From a virus (Duplodnaviria; Caudoviricetes), in IMG/VR virus record IMGVR_UViG_3300007177_000042: a DNA stretch of 64,000 nt; one strand, 5' to 3'. The notes beneath the pieces are model-generated. The model was given only the letters and a program-made list of their open reading frames with translations. It was not told where the DNA came from and did not search any database. Made by a program: the position numbers and the translations under genes. This document shows, in pieces, positions 1,027-7,095 of this stretch (the stretch's first letter is position 1; each line of letters opens with the position of its first letter).

Positions 1027-1056
1027 TTGACAGAATGAAGAATCAATCCGTACAGT
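1027..1056 (+). promoter_or_regulatory. sigma70-like promoter
   Basis: TTGACA-N18-TACAGT. Confidence 0.6.
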
Positions 1057-1062
1057 CAAGTG

Positions 1063-1177
1063 TAGTCGCCGGACAATCAAGTCCAGCGCTATTGCCTAGC
1101 TTAAGCTAGAACTGACTAACGGTAAATTTGCTAAAGAACAAACCGTTGGTCCACAAAACCAACGGTTTTTTGTTTTT
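1063..1177 (+). ncRNA. candidate small RNA or attenuator between a promoter and a terminator
   Basis: No ORF on the + strand; stems TAGTC/GACTA, GGAC/GTCC, CTAGC/GCTAG, then a terminator. Confidence 0.45.
1140..1177 (+). terminator. intrinsic terminator
   Basis: AAACCGTTGGT-ccacaaa-ACCAACGGTTT followed by a T tract. Confidence 0.8.
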
Positions 1178-1186
1178 GAGCAAGGC

Positions 1187-1214
1187 TTGACTTTTCAAAG
1201 AGACGTGGTATAGT
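1187..1214 (+). promoter_or_regulatory. sigma70-like promoter at the head of the tRNA array
   Basis: TTGACT-N16-TATAGT. Confidence 0.6.
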
Positions 1215-1238
1215 GAATGGACAATAAAGAACGACAAT

Positions 1239-1403
1239 ATGGAAAACGACATTGACAATACAACGCAGTTGGATTACCTTAGAAACAAGATGTTGAATGA
1301 ACGGTATCCAACATACCAATACTACATGGCAATTAAGCAAGTTGCTGATAGTATTTTTCCTGAACCGGAATACAAGTATTTGAAATTGTTGAATATTGAG
1401 TAA
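1239..1403 (+). CDS. small hypothetical protein (54 aa, MENDIDNTTQLDYLRNKM...)
   Basis: Translated by hand; below the ORF-track cutoff; directly follows a promoter. Confidence 0.55.
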   Translation: MENDIDNTTQLDYLRNKMLNERYPTYQYYMAIKQVADSIFPEPEYKYLKLLNIE

Positions 1404-1412
1404 AAAAATTTT

Positions 1413-1496
1413 GGGCTTGAAACTCTATCTGGTGTGCCCTTCGTAAGATAAAACACTTGATCGGTCAACTGGTGTTATCCTAGTAGAGAACCAGTA
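1413..1496 (+). ncRNA. candidate pseudoknotted RNA
   Basis: GGGC/GCCC stem whose loop (CTCTA-T-CTGG) can pair with CCTAG-TAGAG at 1479-1488, enclosing a long hairpin at 1447-1479. Confidence 0.35.
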
Positions 1497-1522
1497 TGGC
1501 GATAAATTGGTACAAATTTAAC

Positions 1523-1597
1523 GGGCGGTTAGCTCAGTGGAAGAGCAGATCCTTTACACGGATAAGGTCAGAGGTTCAAATCCTTTACCGCCTACCA
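1523..1597 (+). tRNA. trnV: tRNA-Val(TAC)
   Basis: Cloverleaf, loop TT-TAC-AC, TTCAAAT T loop, encoded CCA. Confidence 0.92.
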
Positions 1598-1604
1598 TTT
1601 TTAT

Positions 1605-1682
1605 CGGAGTGTAGCTCAACTTGGCTAGAGCGCTTGCTTTGGGAGCAAGAAGTTGCAGGTTCAAATCCTGTCACTCCGACCA
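1605..1682 (+). tRNA. trnP: tRNA-Pro(TGG), canonical
   Basis: CGGAGTG/CACTCCG acceptor, CTTGC/GCAAG stem, TGG anticodon, CCA. Confidence 0.93.
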
Positions 1683-1688
1683 TTTTAC

Positions 1689-1766
1689 GGTGATATAGAC
1701 CAACTGGAAGGAGTCGTTACTTTGAGAGAGTAAATAGTGCAGGTTCGAATCCTGTTATCACCACCA
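1689..1766 (+). tRNA. trnL: tRNA-Leu(GAG), short variable loop
   Basis: GGTGATA/TATCACC acceptor, TTACT/AGTAA stem, loop TT-GAG-AG, 5-nt variable loop ATAGT, CCA. Confidence 0.85.
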
Positions 1767-1769
1767 ATT

Positions 1770-1853
1770 CGGCATATGATGTAATAGAAGCCATGCGAGT
1801 CTTAGAAGCTCGTGGAGAAATCCGTGGGGGTGCAAGTCCCTCTATGCCGACCA
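1770..1853 (+). tRNA. trnL: tRNA-Leu(TAG)
   Basis: CGGCATA/TATGCCG acceptor, loop CT-TAG-AA, long variable arm, CCA. Confidence 0.85.
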
Positions 1854-1860
1854 ATTTAAT

Positions 1861-1938
1861 GGCTACGTAGACCAACCGGAAGGAGTCGTCTATCTCAAAA
1901 ATAGAATAGTGCTGGTTCGAATCCAGTCGTAGCTACCA
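1861..1938 (+). tRNA. trnL: tRNA-Leu(CAA), short variable loop
   Basis: GGCTACG/CGTAGCT acceptor, TCTAT/ATAGA stem, loop CT-CAA-AA, variable loop ATAGT, CCA. Confidence 0.85.
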
Positions 1939-1947
1939 ATTTATAAT

Positions 1948-2032
1948 GGGTGTGTGGACACGGCGAAACTGGAAGAAGCGTCTCATTTAAAACGAGAAGT
2001 CCTTGTGAGTTCGAATCTCACCACACCTACCA
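1948..2032 (+). tRNA. trnL: tRNA-Leu(TAA), atypical (about 6 extra nt before the D arm)
   Basis: GGGTGTG/CACACCT acceptor, loop TT-TAA-AA, GTGAG-TTCGAAT-CTCAC T arm, CCA. Confidence 0.72.
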
Positions 2033-2038
2033 ATTTAT

Positions 2039-2114
2039 GGGCTGGCATGTTCTAAGGGAGCGAGACTGTTTTGCAAACAATCTGTTGTGAGTTCGATTCT
2101 CATCTGGTCCACCA
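2039..2114 (+). tRNA. trnA: tRNA-Ala(TGC)
   Basis: G3:U70 wobble, loop TT-TGC-AA, T arm GTGAG-TTCGATT-CTCAT, CCA. Confidence 0.8.
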
Positions 2115-2126
2115 ATTTTTTTGCTA

Positions 2127-2220
2127 GTTTGAACGTAACCACATATTCATGTGGACGAGGGGACGACCCCGCTTAGACGCACTAAGAAGATTTGTTCTTA
2201 GTGGTAAGACGGCTTCAAAC
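2127..2220 (+). ncRNA. orphan multibranch RNA A
   Basis: Closing stem GTTTGAA/TTCAAAC around hairpins CCACAT/ATGTGG, GGGG/CCCC and CACTAAGAA/TTCTTAGTG. Confidence 0.55.
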
Positions 2221-2234
2221 GGTACACATTTTAT

Positions 2235-2324
2235 GGAAGGGTGGCTGAGTGGCTTAAGGCGTCGGTCTTGAAAACCGAAGGGGCCTCAAAACCTCCGGGG
2301 GTTCGAATCCCTCTCCTTCCTCCA
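2235..2324 (+). tRNA. trnS: tRNA-Ser(TGA)
   Basis: TCGGT/ACCGA stem, loop CT-TGA-AA, long variable arm, CCA. Confidence 0.92.
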
Positions 2325-2330
2325 ATTTAT

Positions 2331-2424
2331 GGATGGTAGACGAATAGTTAGTTAGTCGTATCTGTTTGCTAAACAGACGTGGCCTAAAAAACCACTGTGG
2401 GGGCAGCACCCACATCATCCGCCA
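2331..2424 (+). tRNA. trnS: tRNA-Ser(GCT), atypical D and T loops
   Basis: GGATGGT/ATCATCC acceptor, loop TT-GCT-AA, T loop GGCAGCA, CCA. Confidence 0.82.
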
Positions 2425-2430
2425 ATTTGT

Positions 2431-2517
2431 GGAACATAAACCGGACAGCCGTGCCGGAACTGATTCGAAATCAGATTGCACTATGTGTGTGGGGTTGAAG
2501 TCCTCTGTGTTCCGCCA
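2431..2517 (+). tRNA. trnS: tRNA-Ser(CGA), 8/4 fold
   Basis: 8-bp acceptor GGAACATA/TGTGTTCC, 4-bp T stem GGGG/CCTC, loop TT-CGA-AA, G73, CCA. Confidence 0.85.
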
Positions 2518-2519
2518 AT

Positions 2520-2607
2520 GGAGAGTAAACCAGTTAGGTACTGGGGTTGATTGGAAATCAGCACGCACCTTGAAAGGTGTGAGTTTCGAATACTCTGCTC
2601 TCCTCCA
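2520..2607 (+). tRNA. trnS: tRNA-Ser(GGA), 8/4 fold
   Basis: 8-bp acceptor GGAGAGTA/TGCTCTCC, 4-bp T stem GAGT/ACTC with loop TTCGAAT, loop TT-GGA-AA, CCA. Confidence 0.87.
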
Positions 2608-2623
2608 TTTAATAACACTCCAC

Positions 2624-2652
2624 TTGACATTGGAACCGAGAACTGATAGATT
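2624..2652 (+). promoter_or_regulatory. internal sigma70-like promoter in the tRNA array
   Basis: TTGACA-N17-TAGATT. Confidence 0.6.
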
Positions 2653-2696
2653 GATATCGTTCCTTGAAGAAATCGGAGATTGTCAAAAGATTTTAT

Positions 2697-2788
2697 GGTG
2701 AGGTGTCTGAGTGGTCTAAAGAGACAGTTTGCTAAACTGTTGTACGGTTAACCCCGTACCGAGGGTTCGAATCCCTCCCTCACCGCCA
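2697..2788 (+). tRNA. trnS: tRNA-Ser(GCT), canonical
   Basis: ACAGT/ACTGT stem, GCT anticodon, long variable arm, TTCGAAT T loop, CCA. Confidence 0.93.
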
Positions 2789-2793
2789 ATTTT

Positions 2794-2867
2794 GCGGGTA
2801 TAGCTCAATGGTAGAGTGTCAGTCTTCCAAACTGATTATGCGGGTTCAATTCCCGCTACCCGCTCCA
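2794..2867 (+). tRNA. trnG: tRNA-Gly(TCC)
   Basis: GCGGGTA/TACCCGC acceptor, loop CT-TCC-AA, U73, CCA. Confidence 0.93.
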
Positions 2868-2877
2868 AGTTTATGAC

Positions 2878-2951
2878 TGGGGATTTGCATAATGGTAGTG
2901 CAGGAGACTTTGGATCTCTTAGTGAAGGTTCGATTCCTTCATCCCCTGCCA
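2878..2951 (+). tRNA. trnQ: tRNA-Gln(TTG)
   Basis: Loop CT-TTG-GA, TTCGATT T loop, G73, CCA; U1-U72 mismatch. Confidence 0.88.
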
Positions 2952-2963
2952 ACATTTATATAT

Positions 2964-3061
2964 GTCAGTTAAGGGTCTAACTTTAGAGAAATTGTAACTA
3001 GTGATCATATGTTACAAAAGTAAATTCTAGTTGTCGAAAGGCACGTTGATCAAACACTGAC
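2964..3061 (+). ncRNA. orphan structured RNA C
   Basis: GTCAGT/ACTGAC closing stem, GGTC(T)AAC/GTTGATC, TGTAAC/GTTACA, TGTC-GAAA-GGCA GNRA hairpin. Confidence 0.55.
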
Positions 3062-3070
3062 TGAAATTTT

Positions 3071-3191
3071 GTTACGATAGATACATGGTAAACACAGTTA
3101 AGTGTTCGTGGAATCAAAATAATCGTCTAATAAATATAGGACGATAAATACCACCAAGATCGCATGTCGCTATAGCAAACTTTATCGTAAC
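3071..3191 (+). ncRNA. orphan structured RNA D
   Basis: GTTACGATA/TATCGTAAC closing stem, ACATG/CATGT, AACAC/GTGTT, GTGG/CCAC with inner TCGTC/GACGA. Confidence 0.6.
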
Positions 3192-3199
3192 GTTTTTAT

Positions 3200-3275
3200 C
3201 GGAGTGTAATGTCAAAAGTAGACGGCCTGTTTTGGAGACAGGAGGTTGAGATTGCGAAATTCTCCACTCCGACCA
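3200..3275 (+). tRNA. trnP: tRNA-Pro(TGG), atypical elbow
   Basis: CGGAGTG/CACTCCG acceptor, CCTGT/ACAGG stem, T loop TGCGAAA, no GG in D loop, CCA. Confidence 0.8.
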
Positions 3276-3325
3276 TTTTAATTTGTCTCGCCGAAAATAA
3301 CGGTTGCATATCTACCAAGTAAAAT

Positions 3326-3401
3326 CGGGCGTGAGGAAGATAGCTAATCCGCGCCGTTTGGGACGGCGAGACACCGGGAGCAATACCCGGACGCCCGACC
3401 A
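3326..3401 (+). tRNA. trnP: tRNA-Pro(TGG), atypical elbow
   Basis: CGGGCGT/ACGCCCG acceptor, CGCCG/CGGCG stem, T loop AGCAATA, CCA. Confidence 0.8.
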
Positions 3402-3406
3402 TTTAT

Positions 3407-3480
3407 TGGGGTTTAGTATAAAAGTATTATGGCTCGCTTTGAACGAGAGGACGGTGGAGCATTACCATCAACCCCAGCCA
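3407..3480 (+). tRNA. trnQ: tRNA-Gln(TTG), atypical elbow
   Basis: TGGGGTT/AACCCCA acceptor, loop CT-TTG-AA, T loop AGCATTA, CCA. Confidence 0.8.
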
Positions 3481-3490
3481 AATTAATAAT

Positions 3491-3594
3491 CAGCGTGTAG
3501 ACCAACATTAAAGAGTCAATTCCCACAAGGGAACAATGAGTGTGGCTTGAAAGAGATGTCTATGTGACAGGTGAAAATCCCACTACGCTGACCA
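3491..3594 (+). ncRNA. expanded tRNA-like RNA X1 (Leu-type scaffold, collapsed anticodon loop, 25-nt T-stem insertion)
   Basis: CAGCGTG/TACGCTG acceptor + ACCA; D arm TAGACC...GAGTC as in neighbouring Leu tRNAs; TTCCC-ACAA-GGGAA; GTGG[25 nt]G-TGAAAAT-CCCAC. Confidence 0.6.
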
Positions 3595-3636
3595 TTTATT
3601 TAAAATCAAAACTATTTATTGCGTAGGAGTTCAATT

Positions 3637-3861
3637 ATGAATATCAAAAACGCAATAAAAATGTTTGTAGTCACAAATTTATGTTTGTTGACATTAACCG
3701 CTGCCGGATTTCAAACGGAAAAATCAATTGAGACGTATAGAAAAAATTATACATCGTTGGTTTCTAAATGGAAGAAAGAAAAAAACGTTGAAAAGAAGAA
3801 AATTCTTCGTCAACAAATTGAACAGTTGAAAGAAAACAATGTTCATCTGTTCAAAAAGTAA
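3637..3861 (+). CDS. small Lys-rich hypothetical protein with hydrophobic N-terminus
   Basis: AGGAG RBS before ATG 3637 (track start 3619 is a non-ATG extension). Confidence 0.65.
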   Translation: MNIKNAIKMFVVTNLCLLTLTAAGFQTEKSIETYRKNYTSLVSKWKKEKNVEKKKILRQQIEQLKENNVHLFKK

Positions 3862-3866
3862 TTTAT

Positions 3867-3940
3867 TGGGGATTAGTATAAAAGCATTATAACTGACTCT
3901 GAATCAGAAGAAGGTGGAGCATTACCATCATCCCCAGCCA
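3867..3940 (+). tRNA. trnQ: tRNA-Gln(CTG), atypical elbow
   Basis: TGGGGAT/ATCCCCA acceptor, loop CT-CTG-AA, T loop AGCATTA, CCA. Confidence 0.82.
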
Positions 3941-3962
3941 ATTTTGTTACTATTTATACAAT

Positions 3963-4322
3963 ATGATAAAAGCAATCTTAACAAGTATGTTATTGTCCAT
4001 ATCAGTAATGGCATCAGAAAAAACATTGTTGAGTGAGGTTATAGATTTGACCAAAGAGAAAATTTCAAATGAAATCATTGTTGATTATATCAAGACGAAA
4101 CCATTGTTGATTAAGTTATCTGCTCAGAATATAATTGAATTAAAGAAAGAAAAAGTTGATGATGCGGTTGTGAAATTTTTGATTCAAAAGTCTGAGTATG
4201 AAGAGAAGATTAAACTGGTGTTGGATAACTATGACAAAATAGTTGAATATAACAACTACATATATTTTCAAAAAACATATTTGGAGCCGAGAGCAAAAGC
4301 TATGGCTGTCAAATATAATTGA
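3963..4322 (+). CDS. hypothetical protein with signal-peptide-like N-terminus
   Basis: 119-aa ORF, MIKAILTSMLLSISVMA hydrophobic leader, preceded by CTATTTATAC. Confidence 0.7.
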   Translation: MIKAILTSMLLSISVMASEKTLLSEVIDLTKEKISNEIIVDYIKTKPLLIKLSAQNIIELKKEKVDDAVVKFLIQKSEYEEKIKLVLDNYDKIVEYNNYIYFQKTYLEPRAKAMAVKYN

Positions 4323-4323
4323 A

Positions 4324-4638
4324 TTTGACACAAGTGACTCTACGCTGGTGTAAATAACACTAGAGGAAGTTCGCTGCTGCACAGCAGATGATTGGGAGGA
4401 CATAAGTTAACTTCAAATTGCCCACAACGATTAAAAGATTGCAATTCCGTGGAAGCAAGGAGCAATCCGGTTAACCTCAGTCCGTTAAAACCACAAATTA
4501 GCAGTAATCCTAAATAACCCGAGTGTAGTGCTGCACGTTGAAGGGTGAGGTTGGAGCAGTTGTTTTTAACGAACAACCAGTAGTAATACTGAGAGAAATG
4601 TAGGGATAAAACAGAACAGCGGCTATGGCTGTGTCAAA
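4324..4638 (+). ncRNA. rnpB: RNase P RNA
   Basis: P1 TTTGACACA/TGTGTCAAA; P4 GAGGAAGTTCGCTG (4363-4376) pairs with ACAGAACAGCGGCTAT (4611-4626) with the bulged U; about 315 nt. Confidence 0.85.
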
Positions 4639-4644
4639 AATCTT

Positions 4645-4726
4645 GTGGTGGTTTGACCACGGCGTGAGGGACACGATACACCCCTGTATGTCTGACCCGG
4701 ACGAAACGACCCGTAAGGGTAGGGTT
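4645..4726 (+). promoter_or_regulatory. structured leader upstream of feoA (riboswitch-like candidate)
   Basis: Three hairpins; the last 3' strand AGGGTT lies 8 nt before the ATG. Confidence 0.45.
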
Positions 4727-4734
4727 GAATTTTG

Positions 4735-4944
4735 ATGAAAACATACAAGTTAACAGAGCTTAAAGCCGGAGAAAAAGGGCGAATTGTTGAAGTTAACATT
4801 GATAGTCAACGGTTAAAAGAACTTGGCATTATTCGTGGTGCAATTATAACCGTAGTTACAAACAATTTAATTTGTATGATTTGTAATACCCGAATTTGTT
4901 TGGGTAAACCGATGACAGACAATATCATCGTTGAAAAGATGTGA
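4735..4944 (+). CDS. feoA: FeoA-domain (SH3-like ferrous iron transport) protein
   Basis: LTELKAGEKGRIVEV...RLKELGIIRGAIITVV...RICLG...IIVE matches the FeoA pattern. Confidence 0.8.
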   Translation: MKTYKLTELKAGEKGRIVEVNIDSQRLKELGIIRGAIITVVTNNLICMICNTRICLGKPMTDNIIVEKM

Positions 4945-5069
4945 TCGTTGGTGTATAGAATTATAGCACGCTACACGTTGAGAGGGTAGAGGAGATCGAA
5001 GTTGACGGGTTAGACATTATCAGGAACGTTTCGTGAAATCCCCGTATATTCGCAAGTCACGGTCATCCA
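4942..5069 (+). ncRNA. expanded tRNA-like RNA X2
   Basis: Acceptor TGATCGT/ACGGTCA + TCCA; D arm GTGT/GCAC; CTAC/GTAG arm containing TTGAGAG; T arm replaced by a longer domain with ACGGG/CCCGT. Confidence 0.5.
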
Positions 5070-5071
5070 AT

Positions 5072-5158
5072 TTCACAAACACCCGATTGGAGGATTCCTT
5101 AAGGGTTTGGGCGCATGTGCCGCACAGCTTTTTAGCGTATAATAGCACGGTTTGTGAA
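5072..5158 (+). ncRNA. orphan structured RNA E
   Basis: TTCACAAAC/GTTTGTGAA closing stem, CCCGA/TTGGG, GTGC/GCAC, GCT-TTTT-AGC. Confidence 0.45.
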
Positions 5159-5167
5159 TGTTTTCTT

Positions 5168-5196
5168 TTGACAAACACTATATATTGGTGTATGTT
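5168..5196 (+). promoter_or_regulatory. sigma70-like promoter
   Basis: TTGACA-N17-TATGTT. Confidence 0.6.
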
Positions 5197-5204
5197 GTTT
5201 TTAT

Positions 5205-5279
5205 GGGCTGGTGGTGCTAATGGTAACACAACTCGTTTGCACCGAGTGGTTAGGAGTTCGATTCTCCTCCGGTCCACCA
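5205..5279 (+). tRNA. trnA: tRNA-Ala(TGC)
   Basis: G3:U70, ACTCG/CGAGT stem, loop TT-TGC-AC, CCA. Confidence 0.9.
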
Positions 5280-5289
5280 ATTTTAGAGC

Positions 5290-5363
5290 GCGGGTATGAT
5301 GTAGTGGTAGCCTGCAACCTTGCCAAGGTCGATGTGCCGGTTCGATTCCGGCTACCCGCTCCA
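5290..5363 (+). tRNA. trnG: tRNA-Gly(GCC)
   Basis: GCGGGTA/TACCCGC acceptor, loop TT-GCC-AA, U73, CCA. Confidence 0.92.
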
Positions 5364-5371
5364 AACTTAAC

Positions 5372-5400
5372 AAGGCCTGTATTACACAGGCCTTTTTTTT
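5372..5400 (+). terminator. intrinsic terminator ending the tRNA array
   Basis: AAGGCCTGT...ACAGGCCTT followed by a T run. Confidence 0.85.
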
Positions 5401-5412
5401 ATGTAAAATGTT

Positions 5413-6159
5413 ATGACATGCGATGTTGGCGCAGTAGCGATAGTTTATCAAAAACAAGTACAGTCTAGTATCGAAATGATAAAATCATTTCGACAAAACA
5501 ATCAATCATCTACGATAGTGTTATGTACGGATGGATTGGTTGATGAGATTGACGATATATGTAAAGAATATTCGTGTTCAGCGGTGATCAATCACAATCA
5601 ATTGGGTTATCCAGCCAGTCATGATATTGAAATTCCAATCGAATATTTTCGTAGGTTATTATTGGCGTCACAATTGATATCAGAAAAATACTTCATAAAC
5701 CTTGAGCCAGATTGTTTGGTAACAGGAAAAATAACGATACCATATGAGGATTATGATTTCATCATCAACCAAGATCCAACTGTACAGTGGTTATATTACT
5801 TTGAGGGAAAAGACATTCTACGATCTTCAATCATTGATAATGTTTTGAACTACTACAAAAATAACAACGTTTATAGCGAACAGCTATTTGACAAAATAAT
5901 GGGTGGGGGAGGCGACATTTACAACAAGAATATAACGGACAAAATATTACATGAATGGCAATTGTTTAAAACCCGTGCATACGATTTTAAACATTTATGT
6001 GAATCTGCACAAAAAGTATGGTATCATGACATGATTGTATCGTTTCAGGTCCCCTTTCATTGCAAATCAAGATACTGGGGTATAGATTATGCAGAACGAA
6101 CAAAGGATTTGAATTTGTCAGACAGAATTTTTCATAGGTGTAAGCAGTTTTACACATAA
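5413..6159 (+). CDS. hypothetical protein, possibly GT-A fold glycosyltransferase
   Basis: IVLCTDG and FINLEPDCLV (DxD-like) motifs; family call is weak. Confidence 0.45.
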   Translation: MTCDVGAVAIVYQKQVQSSIEMIKSFRQNNQSSTIVLCTDGLVDEIDDICKEYSCSAVINHNQLGYPASHDIEIPIEYFRRLLLASQLISEKYFINLEPDCLVTGKITIPYEDYDFIINQDPTVQWLYYFEGKDILRSSIIDNVLNYYKNNNVYSEQLFDKIMGGGGDIYNKNITDKILHEWQLFKTRAYDFKHLCESAQKVWYHDMIVSFQVPFHCKSRYWGIDYAERTKDLNLSDRIFHRCKQFYT

Positions 6160-6180
6160 AATTCAATGGAATGAACGATC

Positions 6181-6208
6181 TTGACATCACACAACAAAAG
6201 TGTAAGAT
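6181..6208 (+). promoter_or_regulatory. sigma70-like promoter upstream of tmRNA
   Basis: TTGACA-N16-TAAGAT. Confidence 0.5.
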
Positions 6209-6266
6209 AGAATTTGAATACGATCCAAATATGTGATAATAGTTATTAACGGTTCTTTTACAATAT

Positions 6267-6650
6267 GGGCGTGTACTGGTTTCGATTCAAAAATGTAGGT
6301 GTGCTAGGCACGTAGAGGACGATAGTTGGCCTCTTTAATCATCTATCAAAATATAACTGCTAACAAGAAGAGCAAAGTAGTAAGCTACGACTTCACTTCC
6401 CGTGAGGCCGTTGCTCTCGCAGCCTAAGTTGCTGCACATCTTTTATGATGATGTCTGATAATTGTAAAAGATGATAAACATCAGGCTAGATAACAATTTG
6501 TTTGGGATTGTTGTTGATCTTCTACCAGACACCATCAACATAAAGTTTGTTGTTTTAGATTTGTGTTGATGTAACAAAAAACAACTAAGCGTGTAGTCTG
6601 GTATACTTTAAGTTTTGAAGACGCGAGTTCGACTCTCGCCACGTCCACCA
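6267..6650 (+). ncRNA. ssrA: tmRNA; tag peptide ANKKSKVVSYDFTSREAVALAA
   Basis: 5' GGGCGTGTACTGGTTTCGA, 3' GCGAG-TTCGACT-CTCGC-CACGTCCACCA with G3:U; tag ORF 6359-6427 after ATAACT, ending ALAA-stop. Confidence 0.93.
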
Positions 6651-6706
6651 ATTTTCTTTATTTTCTGTTTTGGTTATACTAGTTATATCTAGAAAGGTTA
6701 TTAACT

Positions 6707-6895
6707 ATGGCAAGTTCCAAAGCGGATATACAAAAAAAGGTGTATGAGTTGACAGAAAAACTCATTTTCACAAAAAAAGATTTTAAGGATGTAGCATCTG
6801 GTTACAAAGAAAAAATCAAAGAGTTAGAAAACGAAATTAAAGCGTTGGTTGAAGAGGCTGAATCAACATCACCAACTTCTACTACATCAAGTTAA
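6707..6895 (+). CDS. small coiled-coil hypothetical protein
   Basis: 62-aa ORF with AGAAAGG RBS. Confidence 0.7.
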   Translation: MASSKADIQKKVYELTEKLIFTKKDFKDVASGYKEKIKELENEIKALVEEAESTSPTSTTSS

Positions 6896-6902
6896 TTTTA
6901 AC

Positions 6903-7055
6903 GATTGATTGTCTCAACAAATGGCCCTAAGTATGGATACATGGGCGCAACTTGACAAAAAAAGTAAAAACTTAAGTTGTTTTGAAAGTCGAGTAAGGTG
7001 TCTTACACCGAGAGGTAAGATATGAATTTGACGAGATTCAAATAGACAATTGATT
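6903..7055 (+). ncRNA. orphan structured element F
   Basis: 12-bp closing stem GATTGATTGTCT/AGACAATTGATT around four hairpins. Confidence 0.4.
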
Positions 7056-7095
7056 GTATGCCACAAATGAAAATTTGTGGCTTTATTATTTTCAT

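Follow-up and report, generated by a model that had tools for sequence, protein, structure and literature searches.

An RNA gene island in a freshwater jumbo phage

The stretch of DNA analyzed here (the window) comprises 64,000 nucleotides (nt) of the IMG/VR virus record IMGVR_UViG_3300007177_000042 (Duplodnaviria; Caudoviricetes) and carries an island of RNA genes at positions 1027-7090. Transfer RNA (tRNA) genes, a transfer-messenger RNA (tmRNA) and an RNase P-like RNA are found there, interleaved with small folded RNAs, here called elements A, B, C, G, H, Q and R and tRNA mimics X1 and X2. All features described lie on the plus strand of the window, which is the minus strand of the 111.7-kb record. 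Selected RNA structures are embedded in these tRNA operons beside a reduced RNase P RNA and the tmRNA, and at least six of them are conserved, folded small RNAs outside catalogued families. The initial annotation, made from the sequence alone, had proposed about ten unassigned structured RNAs set in the array in the manner of tRNA genes. Their placement and the presence of several genuine RNA structures under selection hold, and about six to seven of the slots, not ten, find support. As it had also supposed, the slots lie outside known families: Rfam searches with the whole island and with small cut-outs gave no family match for any of them.

The record is judged 36% complete. Its baseplate, portal and major-head proteins are recognizable, and the head protein has approximately 600 relatives in IMG/VR, complete genomes of 350-370 kb among them. 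The island occurs in public metagenome runs from freshwater, aquaculture, lagoons and wastewater, and GenBank phages match the island at the tRNA level only. An RNA-gene island of an uncultivated freshwater jumbo phage is the best explanation of the locus, which forms the downstream third of the record's RNA region of ~23 kb.

A reduced RNase P-like RNA

The unit at 4326-4640 resembles, by homology and covariation, an RNase P RNA with a type-A catalytic domain and a variable stem in place of the S-domain core. A pattern derived from its 3' half matches 34 viral contigs; no match to the 7-letter RNase P-like pattern occurs in 185,579 cellular genomes, and an exact CR-I pattern search returned nothing. 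In the family alignment of 27 distinct sequences, the CR-I, CR-V and J18/2 blocks are invariant or near-invariant. RNAalifold applied to this family yields P3, P4, P5, a helix in the P15 region, a further hairpin and P18 with a GNRA loop. P3, P4, P5 and P18 covary, as does P2 when examined by eye. The evidence is clearest in P4, where alignment columns 113-121 pair with columns 445-452, the U in column 116 is bulged, and 5 of the 8 pairs are compensatory, with pair identities split across the family as CG:13 / AU:13 and CG:11 / UA:10 / GC:6. A long-range helix between the CR-I-like and CR-V-like blocks, with a single bulged U, is the hallmark of P4. The GGT of the P15 region (columns 374-376) is invariant and is paired by RNAalifold with an equally invariant TCC, so that this pairing offers no variation to read. 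In bacterial RNase P RNA, the GGU of the P15 region binds the 3' CCA of the tRNA.

How is this RNA related to the cellular enzyme? The Rfam model RF00010 detects one homologue, G027, with 44.1 bits (E 3e-13 in the whole record, E 1.2e-12 in a 401-nt cmscan), a score below the model's gathering threshold of 100 bits. The alignment runs end to end, with P1-P5, the P15 block, J18/2 and CR-V matched, while the S-domain consensus (CR-II/CR-III, P10-P12 region) falls in gaps. Among 11 records tried with RF00010, the G027 lineage alone was detected, and five other relatives gave no match. Members of the family are 250-390 nt long with a core of 184-319 nt. Between P5 and the return strand they possess only a stem, ranging from a 5-bp hairpin or 10 nt up to ~130 nt, and strains present in two DNA-type and two RNA libraries have the 84-nt variable stem (4399-4482) swapped for 10 other letters. 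From these comparisons we conclude that 4326-4640 represents a diverged, type-A-derived RNase P RNA without the canonical specificity core, and a putative ribozyme. The initial annotation had named an RNase P RNA in the island and regarded it as established that huge phages encode one. The term RNase P RNA occurs 0 times in the huge-phage paper (PMC7162821), and we found no description of a phage-encoded RNase P RNA in the literature searched; the premise of an established precedent therefore falls.

Elements C, Q and X2

Three small RNAs show strong covariation, each examined with 500 shuffles and with slid-partner controls; folding stability is given as z, relative to shuffled sequences, and the E-values of the covariance models are rough, since they derive from a shortened calibration. 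Element C (2127-2220) is a four-way-junction RNA of ~95 nt that is closed by a 7-bp stem and lacks CCA, and has a z of -4.9 within the limits first drawn for it. Its covariance model, R1, recovers 16 copies, 12 of them distinct, distant relatives included. Paired cells amount to 96.3%, 18 of 25 pairs are changed on both sides, none of the 500 shuffles reaches this result, and slid partners score 4-fold lower or less. Within the close clade, C always lies between the CCA of a tRNA and a tRNA-Ser. A guanidine-II-like ACGA hairpin inside C was considered and is not kept in relatives. A relaxed C pattern run against cellular genomes gave ~120 chance matches and one copy confirmed by the covariance model (L250:2439-2538, 126 bits). 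The contig carrying this copy is 3.2 kb long and was assigned to a Phycisphaerales metagenome-assembled genome from Lake Mendota; it is either a phage fragment placed in the wrong bin or a pointer to the host.

Element Q (5072-5158; z -1.4) is likewise a four-way-junction RNA and, in relatives, the usual 3' neighbour of the RNase P RNA. Model R2 finds 22 matches, 14 of them distinct, with 99% of cells paired and double changes at 15 of 24 pairs (0/500 shuffles). In distant copies every pair of the closing stem has been replaced by another pair, and two of these copies end in ACCA. Q is highly conserved, and its internal loop is an invariant, symmetric 4x4 loop; the 11-nt GAAA receptor was considered for this loop and is a different motif. 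Q follows the RNase P RNA directly on the 3' side in at least five divergent relatives, starting a few bases from its 3' end in L124/L127/L131/L148, L135, L104, the L126 group, L139 and L133 (one hairpin). It starts 150 nt after the RNase P RNA in L105, and feoA and/or X2 stand between the two in the window, G001 and L125. Behind 11 further RNase P loci, a filter-off search produced one weak, positionally consistent match only.

The tRNA mimic X2 (4942-5069; z +0.6) has a 7-bp acceptor stem with UCCA, D-like and anticodon-like arms, and a long extra arm bearing the T-loop-like GTGAAATCC. Model R3 recovers 13 full-length copies in which 97.8% of cells are paired and 19 of 30 pairs carry double changes, again reached by 0 of 500 shuffles. 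The acceptor and anticodon-like stems covary, and the anticodon-like loop varies in both length and sequence. A lone feoA (4735-4944), without feoB, sits between the RNase P RNA and X2, and its stop codon overlaps the first bases of X2.

Leaders, terminator-linked units and less widespread elements

Element A (1063-1177) combines a small three-way junction with a downstream intrinsic terminator and has a conserved alternative pairing reminiscent of an antiterminator. It has a z of -4.9 and 10 distinct homologues, in which hairpin 1 covaries (GC/CG 5:5). The AACGG / CCGTTGG pairing is kept in 10 of 10 sequences through invariant or one-sided (wobble) changes only, and the segment complementary to the 5' strand of the terminator is invariant. 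The sigma-70-like promoter ahead of A (1027-1056; TTGACA-18-TACAGT, 10 of 12 consensus matches) has its -35 and -10 preserved in relatives. Element A is a separate promoter-to-terminator unit outside the array, and looks like an attenuator or a small separate RNA rather than an array member.

Element B is a conserved leader motif at the head of the tRNA operon, with a paralogue just ahead of the tRNA-Thr operon in the same record and compensatory changes in three stems among five relatives. Within the limits of the initial annotation, 1413-1496, its z is +0.35 and not significant. B (about 1413-1512) is part of the 5' leader of the operon, not an array gene, with its true 3' edge near 1512.

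Element G (2964-3061; z -1.2) is a multi-stem RNA with a GNRA-capped hairpin, known from eight distinct copies in three subtypes. Compensatory changes occur in its closing stem, inner stem and GAAA hairpin, and it is missing from some strains. The tRNA-like X1 (3491-3594; z -1.4), recognized by reading the sequence, has an acceptor stem with CCA, a 4-nt loop on its anticodon-like arm and a T-arm insert; its one homologue (G023, 89% identity) shows two compensatory changes. Both X1 and X2 have a 7-bp acceptor stem, a discriminator base and a 3' CCA, and both lack a 7-nt anticodon loop with a conserved anticodon as well as a canonical T loop, the T-arm region being interrupted by an insert in each. 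For A, B, G and X1, compensatory changes extend over fewer lineages than for C, Q and X2. Element H (3071-3191; z -2.1) is a 121-nt unit with a long closing stem. Scans of IMG/VR with an H pattern gave chance matches except for L145, where H precedes G in an order swapped relative to the window, and a metagenome scan added one near-identical copy.

Element R (6903-7090) is the 3' region of a small open reading frame (ORF, 6707-6895) and comprises two conserved hairpins and a terminator, identified by comparison with G001 and by terminator scan. Its z is -3.4 (6903-7050), and a 9-bp hairpin over a promoter-like site is not conserved in the homologue. The 6903-7055 slot of the initial annotation survives in part, with partial covariation on one side and its position behind a small ORF and before a terminator on the other. 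The slot at 4645-4726, ahead of feoA (4735-4944, Pfam), is a feoA leader and finds no support as a structured RNA.

Could the slots be decaying tRNA pseudogenes or neutral filler, their by-eye folds being chance products of AT-poor, tRNA-derived sequence? Degenerate tRNA paralogues do occur in the island, and H and the feoA leader lack covariation support. The compact folds first seen by eye are more stable than shuffles for 1063-1177, 2127-2220 and 6903-7050 (with 3071-3191 at z -2.1), and z is not significant for 2964-3061, 5072-5158, 4645-4726, 1413-1496, X1 and X2. Against chance stand the 96-99% of cells paired in C, Q and X2, the 15-19 pairs per element with double changes, and slid-partner scores 3- to 7-fold lower. 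Moreover, covariance models recover C and Q in relatives whose head (capsid) protein is only 64-74% identical, and C, G, Q, X1 and X2 do not reach 29 bits with the tRNA model (RF00005), even at E<=10. Decay or filler is in our view a highly improbable origin for these elements.

tRNAs and tmRNA

At default settings ARAGORN reports 13 tRNAs and the tmRNA (6267-6650) in the island. Rfam detects 11 tRNAs under its default filters; lax filters raise the number to 13 by adding 3407-3477 and 3867-3937. Relaxed ARAGORN settings add 2431-2517 and 3326-3401, and three degenerate units (1950-2033, 2331-2425 and 3196-3276) are seen only by eye or paralogy. The tally is 13 clear tRNAs, 15 with Rfam and ~20 if the degenerate ones are included; the figure of 20 first given for the array holds in this last sense and is not attained by ARAGORN and Rfam alone. 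CCA is encoded by every island tRNA, by both tRNA mimics and by the tmRNA, and is followed by an AT-rich linker; the linkers and the CCA ends of X1 and X2 had been read correctly at the outset. No gene for a CCA-adding enzyme was found in the phage record.

The first block (1523-2114; ARAGORN, Rfam) contains Val, Pro, Leu(GAG)-like, Leu(UAG) and Leu(CAA)-like tRNAs, the degenerate unit 1950-2033, within which 1962-2021 scores 19.6 bits only, and Ala(UGC). The tRNAs at 1689-1766 and 1861-1938, 78 nt each with Leu anticodons GAG and CAA, do not have the long variable arm of bacterial tRNA-Leu, and share an unusual D region with mimic X1. The tRNA-Ser block (2235-2607) consists of UGA, an odd GCU-like unit (2331-2425, by eye only), CGA and GGA, the remainder being called by ARAGORN. 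Ser(GCU), Gly(UCC) and Gln(UUG) follow at 2697-2951 (ARAGORN, Rfam). Three tRNAs with non-canonical elbows occupy 3196-3480 (lax Rfam, relaxed ARAGORN, paralogy): a Pro-like unit (3196-3276), a Pro(UGG)-like unit (3326-3401) and a Gln(UUG)-like unit (3407-3480). A tRNA-Gln(CUG) with a non-canonical T loop (3867-3940; Rfam 39 bits, relaxed ARAGORN) lies between the small ORFs 3637-3861 and 3963-4322. T loops without the TTC consensus are found in the duplicate-anticodon tRNAs 2331-2425, 3196-3276, 3326-3401, 3407-3480 and 3867-3940 (Ser, Pro twice and Gln twice). The spacer at 3285-3293 is perfectly complementary over 9 nt to 3366-3374, the anticodon/variable region of the Pro-like tRNA; this pairing dominates the predicted fold of 3285-3402, and no homologue of the spacer was found.

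The last tRNAs, Ala(UGC) and Gly(GCC), are enclosed by their own promoter and an intrinsic terminator (5168-5400; ARAGORN and promoter/terminator scan). The tmRNA and its promoter (6181-6650) bear out the initial annotation, with a full-length RF00023 match of 161.7 bits against a threshold of 47 and a tag peptide reported by ARAGORN. In the whole record ARAGORN counts 37 tRNAs, spread over ~23 kb, one with a CUA anticodon. This tRNA lies outside the window in the upstream RNA region (L163:7248-7323; G000:C1:71347-71422); it is labelled Pyl by ARAGORN and is of the amber suppressor type.

An epimerase gene precedes the island (Pfam), and the ORFs of the window are normal under table 11. The 248-aa ORF at 5413-6159, within the island, has no Pfam family and no relatives in IMG/VR; a different sequence occupies its place in G001.

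Operon layout, expression and modularity

High-scoring plus-strand promoters start at 1027, 1187, 2624, 5168 and 6181, and strong terminators are located at 1140-1177, 5372-5400 and 7060-7090. The main tRNA operon promoter (1187-1214; TTGACT-16-TATAGT with a TG extension) lies ahead of a 54-aa ORF (1239-1403), and an internal promoter (2624-2652; TTGACA-17-TAGATT) is kept in G001 and accounts for the stretch 2608-2696. Terminator-like sites number 12 in all, against 4.7 +/- 1.9 expected, and the main array is bracketed by just two strong intrinsic terminators, 1140-1177 and 5372-5400. In this layout, transcription of the long tRNA operons would start from two or three promoters of the sigma-70 type and stop at no more than two strong terminators.

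Four metatranscriptome studies contain contigs that span 4324-4700 and tRNAs, with the tmRNA covered in one of these studies. The ORFs of the island are not covered, which speaks against simple carry-over of DNA. On one metatranscriptome contig, 492 nt long, tRNA-Gln and a Pro-like tRNA are followed by 83 other letters and then by the RNase P RNA; the contig stops at 4638, the predicted 3' end of the RNase P RNA, and another contig begins at 4324. In a fifth RNA library, a 370-nt contig matches the tmRNA (6276-6645). The polycistronic precursor envisaged in the initial annotation is in keeping with the two bracketing terminators and the 492-nt linking contig; release of the small RNAs from it would be a further step.

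Are the non-tRNA units, then, mostly cis-acting parts of the transcript, such as leaders, attenuators, processing spacers, terminators and promoter regions, rather than released functional RNAs? Several observations fit this view: A has its own promoter, terminator and conserved alternative pairing, B heads two operons, R closes with a terminator, 2608-2696 is no more than a promoter, and Q could be a mere 3' processing signal of the RNase P RNA. It accords less well with C, G, H, Q and X2, which lie between tRNA genes with the same linkers, form closed, tRNA-sized multi-helix folds, and move or vanish as independent modules between strains. Furthermore, the unpaired nucleotides of C and Q are conserved more than a spacer needs. 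We regard a chiefly cis-acting role as unlikely.

In near-identical strains, contigs from metagenomes and metatranscriptomes lack whole units, with the breaks falling at unit borders (2952->3194, 3069->3281, 3280->4324 and 3939->4322), so the small RNAs behave like tRNA genes, as exchangeable cassettes. The same pattern might be expected if the modules were small mobile DNA elements, or footprints of such elements between tRNA genes, and their palindromic ends DNA-level features. Presence, absence and order of the modules do vary between near-identical strains with breakpoints at unit borders, and each module is bounded by 6-11 bp inverted repeats. However, there are no target-site duplications, no terminal repeat common to the modules, and no transposase or homing endonuclease gene nearby. 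Internal helices covary as well, which is unexpected if only DNA ends were under selection, and the tRNA genes of these arrays are likewise gained and lost as modules. A mobile-element origin consequently merits very little credence.

Processing and possible roles of the island RNAs

We consider it likely that the locus is an RNA-gene island in which tRNA operons, a reduced RNase P RNA, tRNA mimics and packed multi-helix RNAs are co-transcribed and the small RNAs excised. The operons would carry a reduced RNase P RNA that retains the P1-P5, P15-like and P18 helices together with CR-I, CR-V and J18/2; tRNA paralogues with remodelled elbows and two CCA-ended mimics probably unable to decode (X1 and X2); and the tRNA-sized multi-helix RNAs C, G, Q and perhaps H, between AT-rich linkers like those of the tRNAs. 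Element A would be a separate short transcript or attenuator ahead of the operon, and B its 5' leader. The small RNAs may be transcribed together with the tRNAs and then cut out by the tRNA-maturation machinery, RNase P cutting on the 5' side of acceptor-like closing stems and host endo- and exonucleases acting in the AU-rich linkers. Once excised, they could accumulate as stable RNAs, as T4 RNA C and RNA D do. Processing may be carried out by the phage's own RNase P, as the initial annotation had suggested.

Several results weigh against this interpretation. C and Q in the clade of the window have no CCA end and are therefore not textbook RNase P substrates. X2 and Q are covered by no RNA contig among the metatranscriptome contigs, and Logan contigs cannot show transcript ends or strand, so that excision of C, G, Q, X1 and X2 is a prediction. 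RF00010 does not match the window copy of the RNase P-like RNA even at E<=10, including in a 441-nt cut-out; we nevertheless judge 4326-4640 a genuine RNase P-like unit because of its homology and covariation, and to that extent uphold its first identification. No RnpA gene was found in the phage record or in five relatives, three of them complete. The alignments behind the covariation counts had been fitted to the models and represent few independent lineages (3-6), which inflates the shuffle statistics. Among the other elements, H has relatives only in L145 and L185, ~90% identical and with one-sided changes but no double change; R has a sole homologue, G001, with three compensatory changes in the hairpin near 7010-7035, a weak support; and the feoA leader (4645-4726) has a z of -0.6 and no homologues found.

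What is the function of Q beside the RNase P RNA? Its likeliest role is to mark or form the RNase P RNA's 3' end, or to act together with that RNA. A bolder view is that the ribozyme has two parts, with 4326-4640 supplying the catalytic domain alone and Q the missing substrate-recognition or scaffold function. Under this view Q might be a relocated S-domain, an idea prompted by short resemblances to J11/12 and CR-III; in some relatives Q is cut down to the single hairpin with the invariant internal loop, immediately behind the ribozyme. Q could then act in cis or, once cut off, in trans, one option being that it docks the conserved GNRA loop of P18, and the two RNAs together would mature the unusual tRNAs and tRNA mimics of the phage. 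We hold such a division of labour to be quite improbable, and favour the island of co-transcribed and excised RNAs described above, with Q as a neighbour or partner of the RNase P RNA.

The usual view of RNase P RNA is that of a housekeeping ribozyme of cells. A viral version without an S-domain would, if true, constitute a natural minimal RNase P and a new case in which phages take control of tRNA maturation; the RNase P-like RNA occurs widely among freshwater phages and is also found in metatranscriptomes. In addition, one island yields a set of well-supported new RNA families, namely C, G, Q and X2 along with leader motifs A and B. Each has defined boundaries and a structure, with covariance models available for C, Q and X2 and alignments for the others. 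The role of non-tRNA stable RNAs in phage tRNA clusters, a question since T4 RNA C and D, is now approachable. Such RNAs may serve as processing punctuation, as ribozyme cofactors or as decoys against host nucleases that target tRNA.

Comparison with known systems

The phage RNase P-like RNA agrees with bacterial type A RNase P RNA (RF00010) in its P1-P2-P3 layout, CR-I, a P4 with one bulged U, P5, a P15-region block, a GNRA-capped P18, and the J18/2 and CR-V blocks. The invariant GGU of its P15-region block may be a further correspondence. Its gene is also surrounded by the presumed substrates, which all encode CCA. It differs from RF00010 in being phage-encoded, in its length of 250-390 nt and in the replacement of the S-domain core by a stem of 10 to ~130 nt. 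Furthermore, it falls far below the Rfam threshold (no match for the window copy, 44 versus 100 bits in one relative), and no RnpA gene was found with it.

X1 and X2 resemble tRNA mimics of the mascRNA type and the Y-RNA-like YrlA of bacteria and phages in possessing a 7-bp acceptor stem, a discriminator base and CCA without a usable anticodon loop, and the ACCA ends of distant Q copies are a further likeness. Unlike mascRNA and YrlA, they have no Rfam match to tRNA, Y RNA or any other family, X2 has a long extra arm, and no Ro/Rsr gene context is seen.

GOLLD and ROOL are phage-borne structured non-coding RNAs of unknown function that are associated with tRNA clusters (PMC5737381, PMC12286853). 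They are single RNAs of 500-800 nt, in contrast to the island modules, which are separate units of 85-130 nt, and the Rfam GOLLD and ROOL models do not match the island.

The closest precedent for the small RNAs of the island would, by analogy, be the stable RNAs C and D (species 1 and 2) of phage T4. These lie in the T4 tRNA cluster and are matured from tRNA precursors with the help of RNase P, for which T4 relies on its host. Their function is unknown (PMC9697503). The likeness is one of genomic setting only, in that small RNAs lie together with phage tRNA genes; the island differs from T4 in having many more families, several of them tRNA-shaped, and a phage RNase P RNA in their midst.

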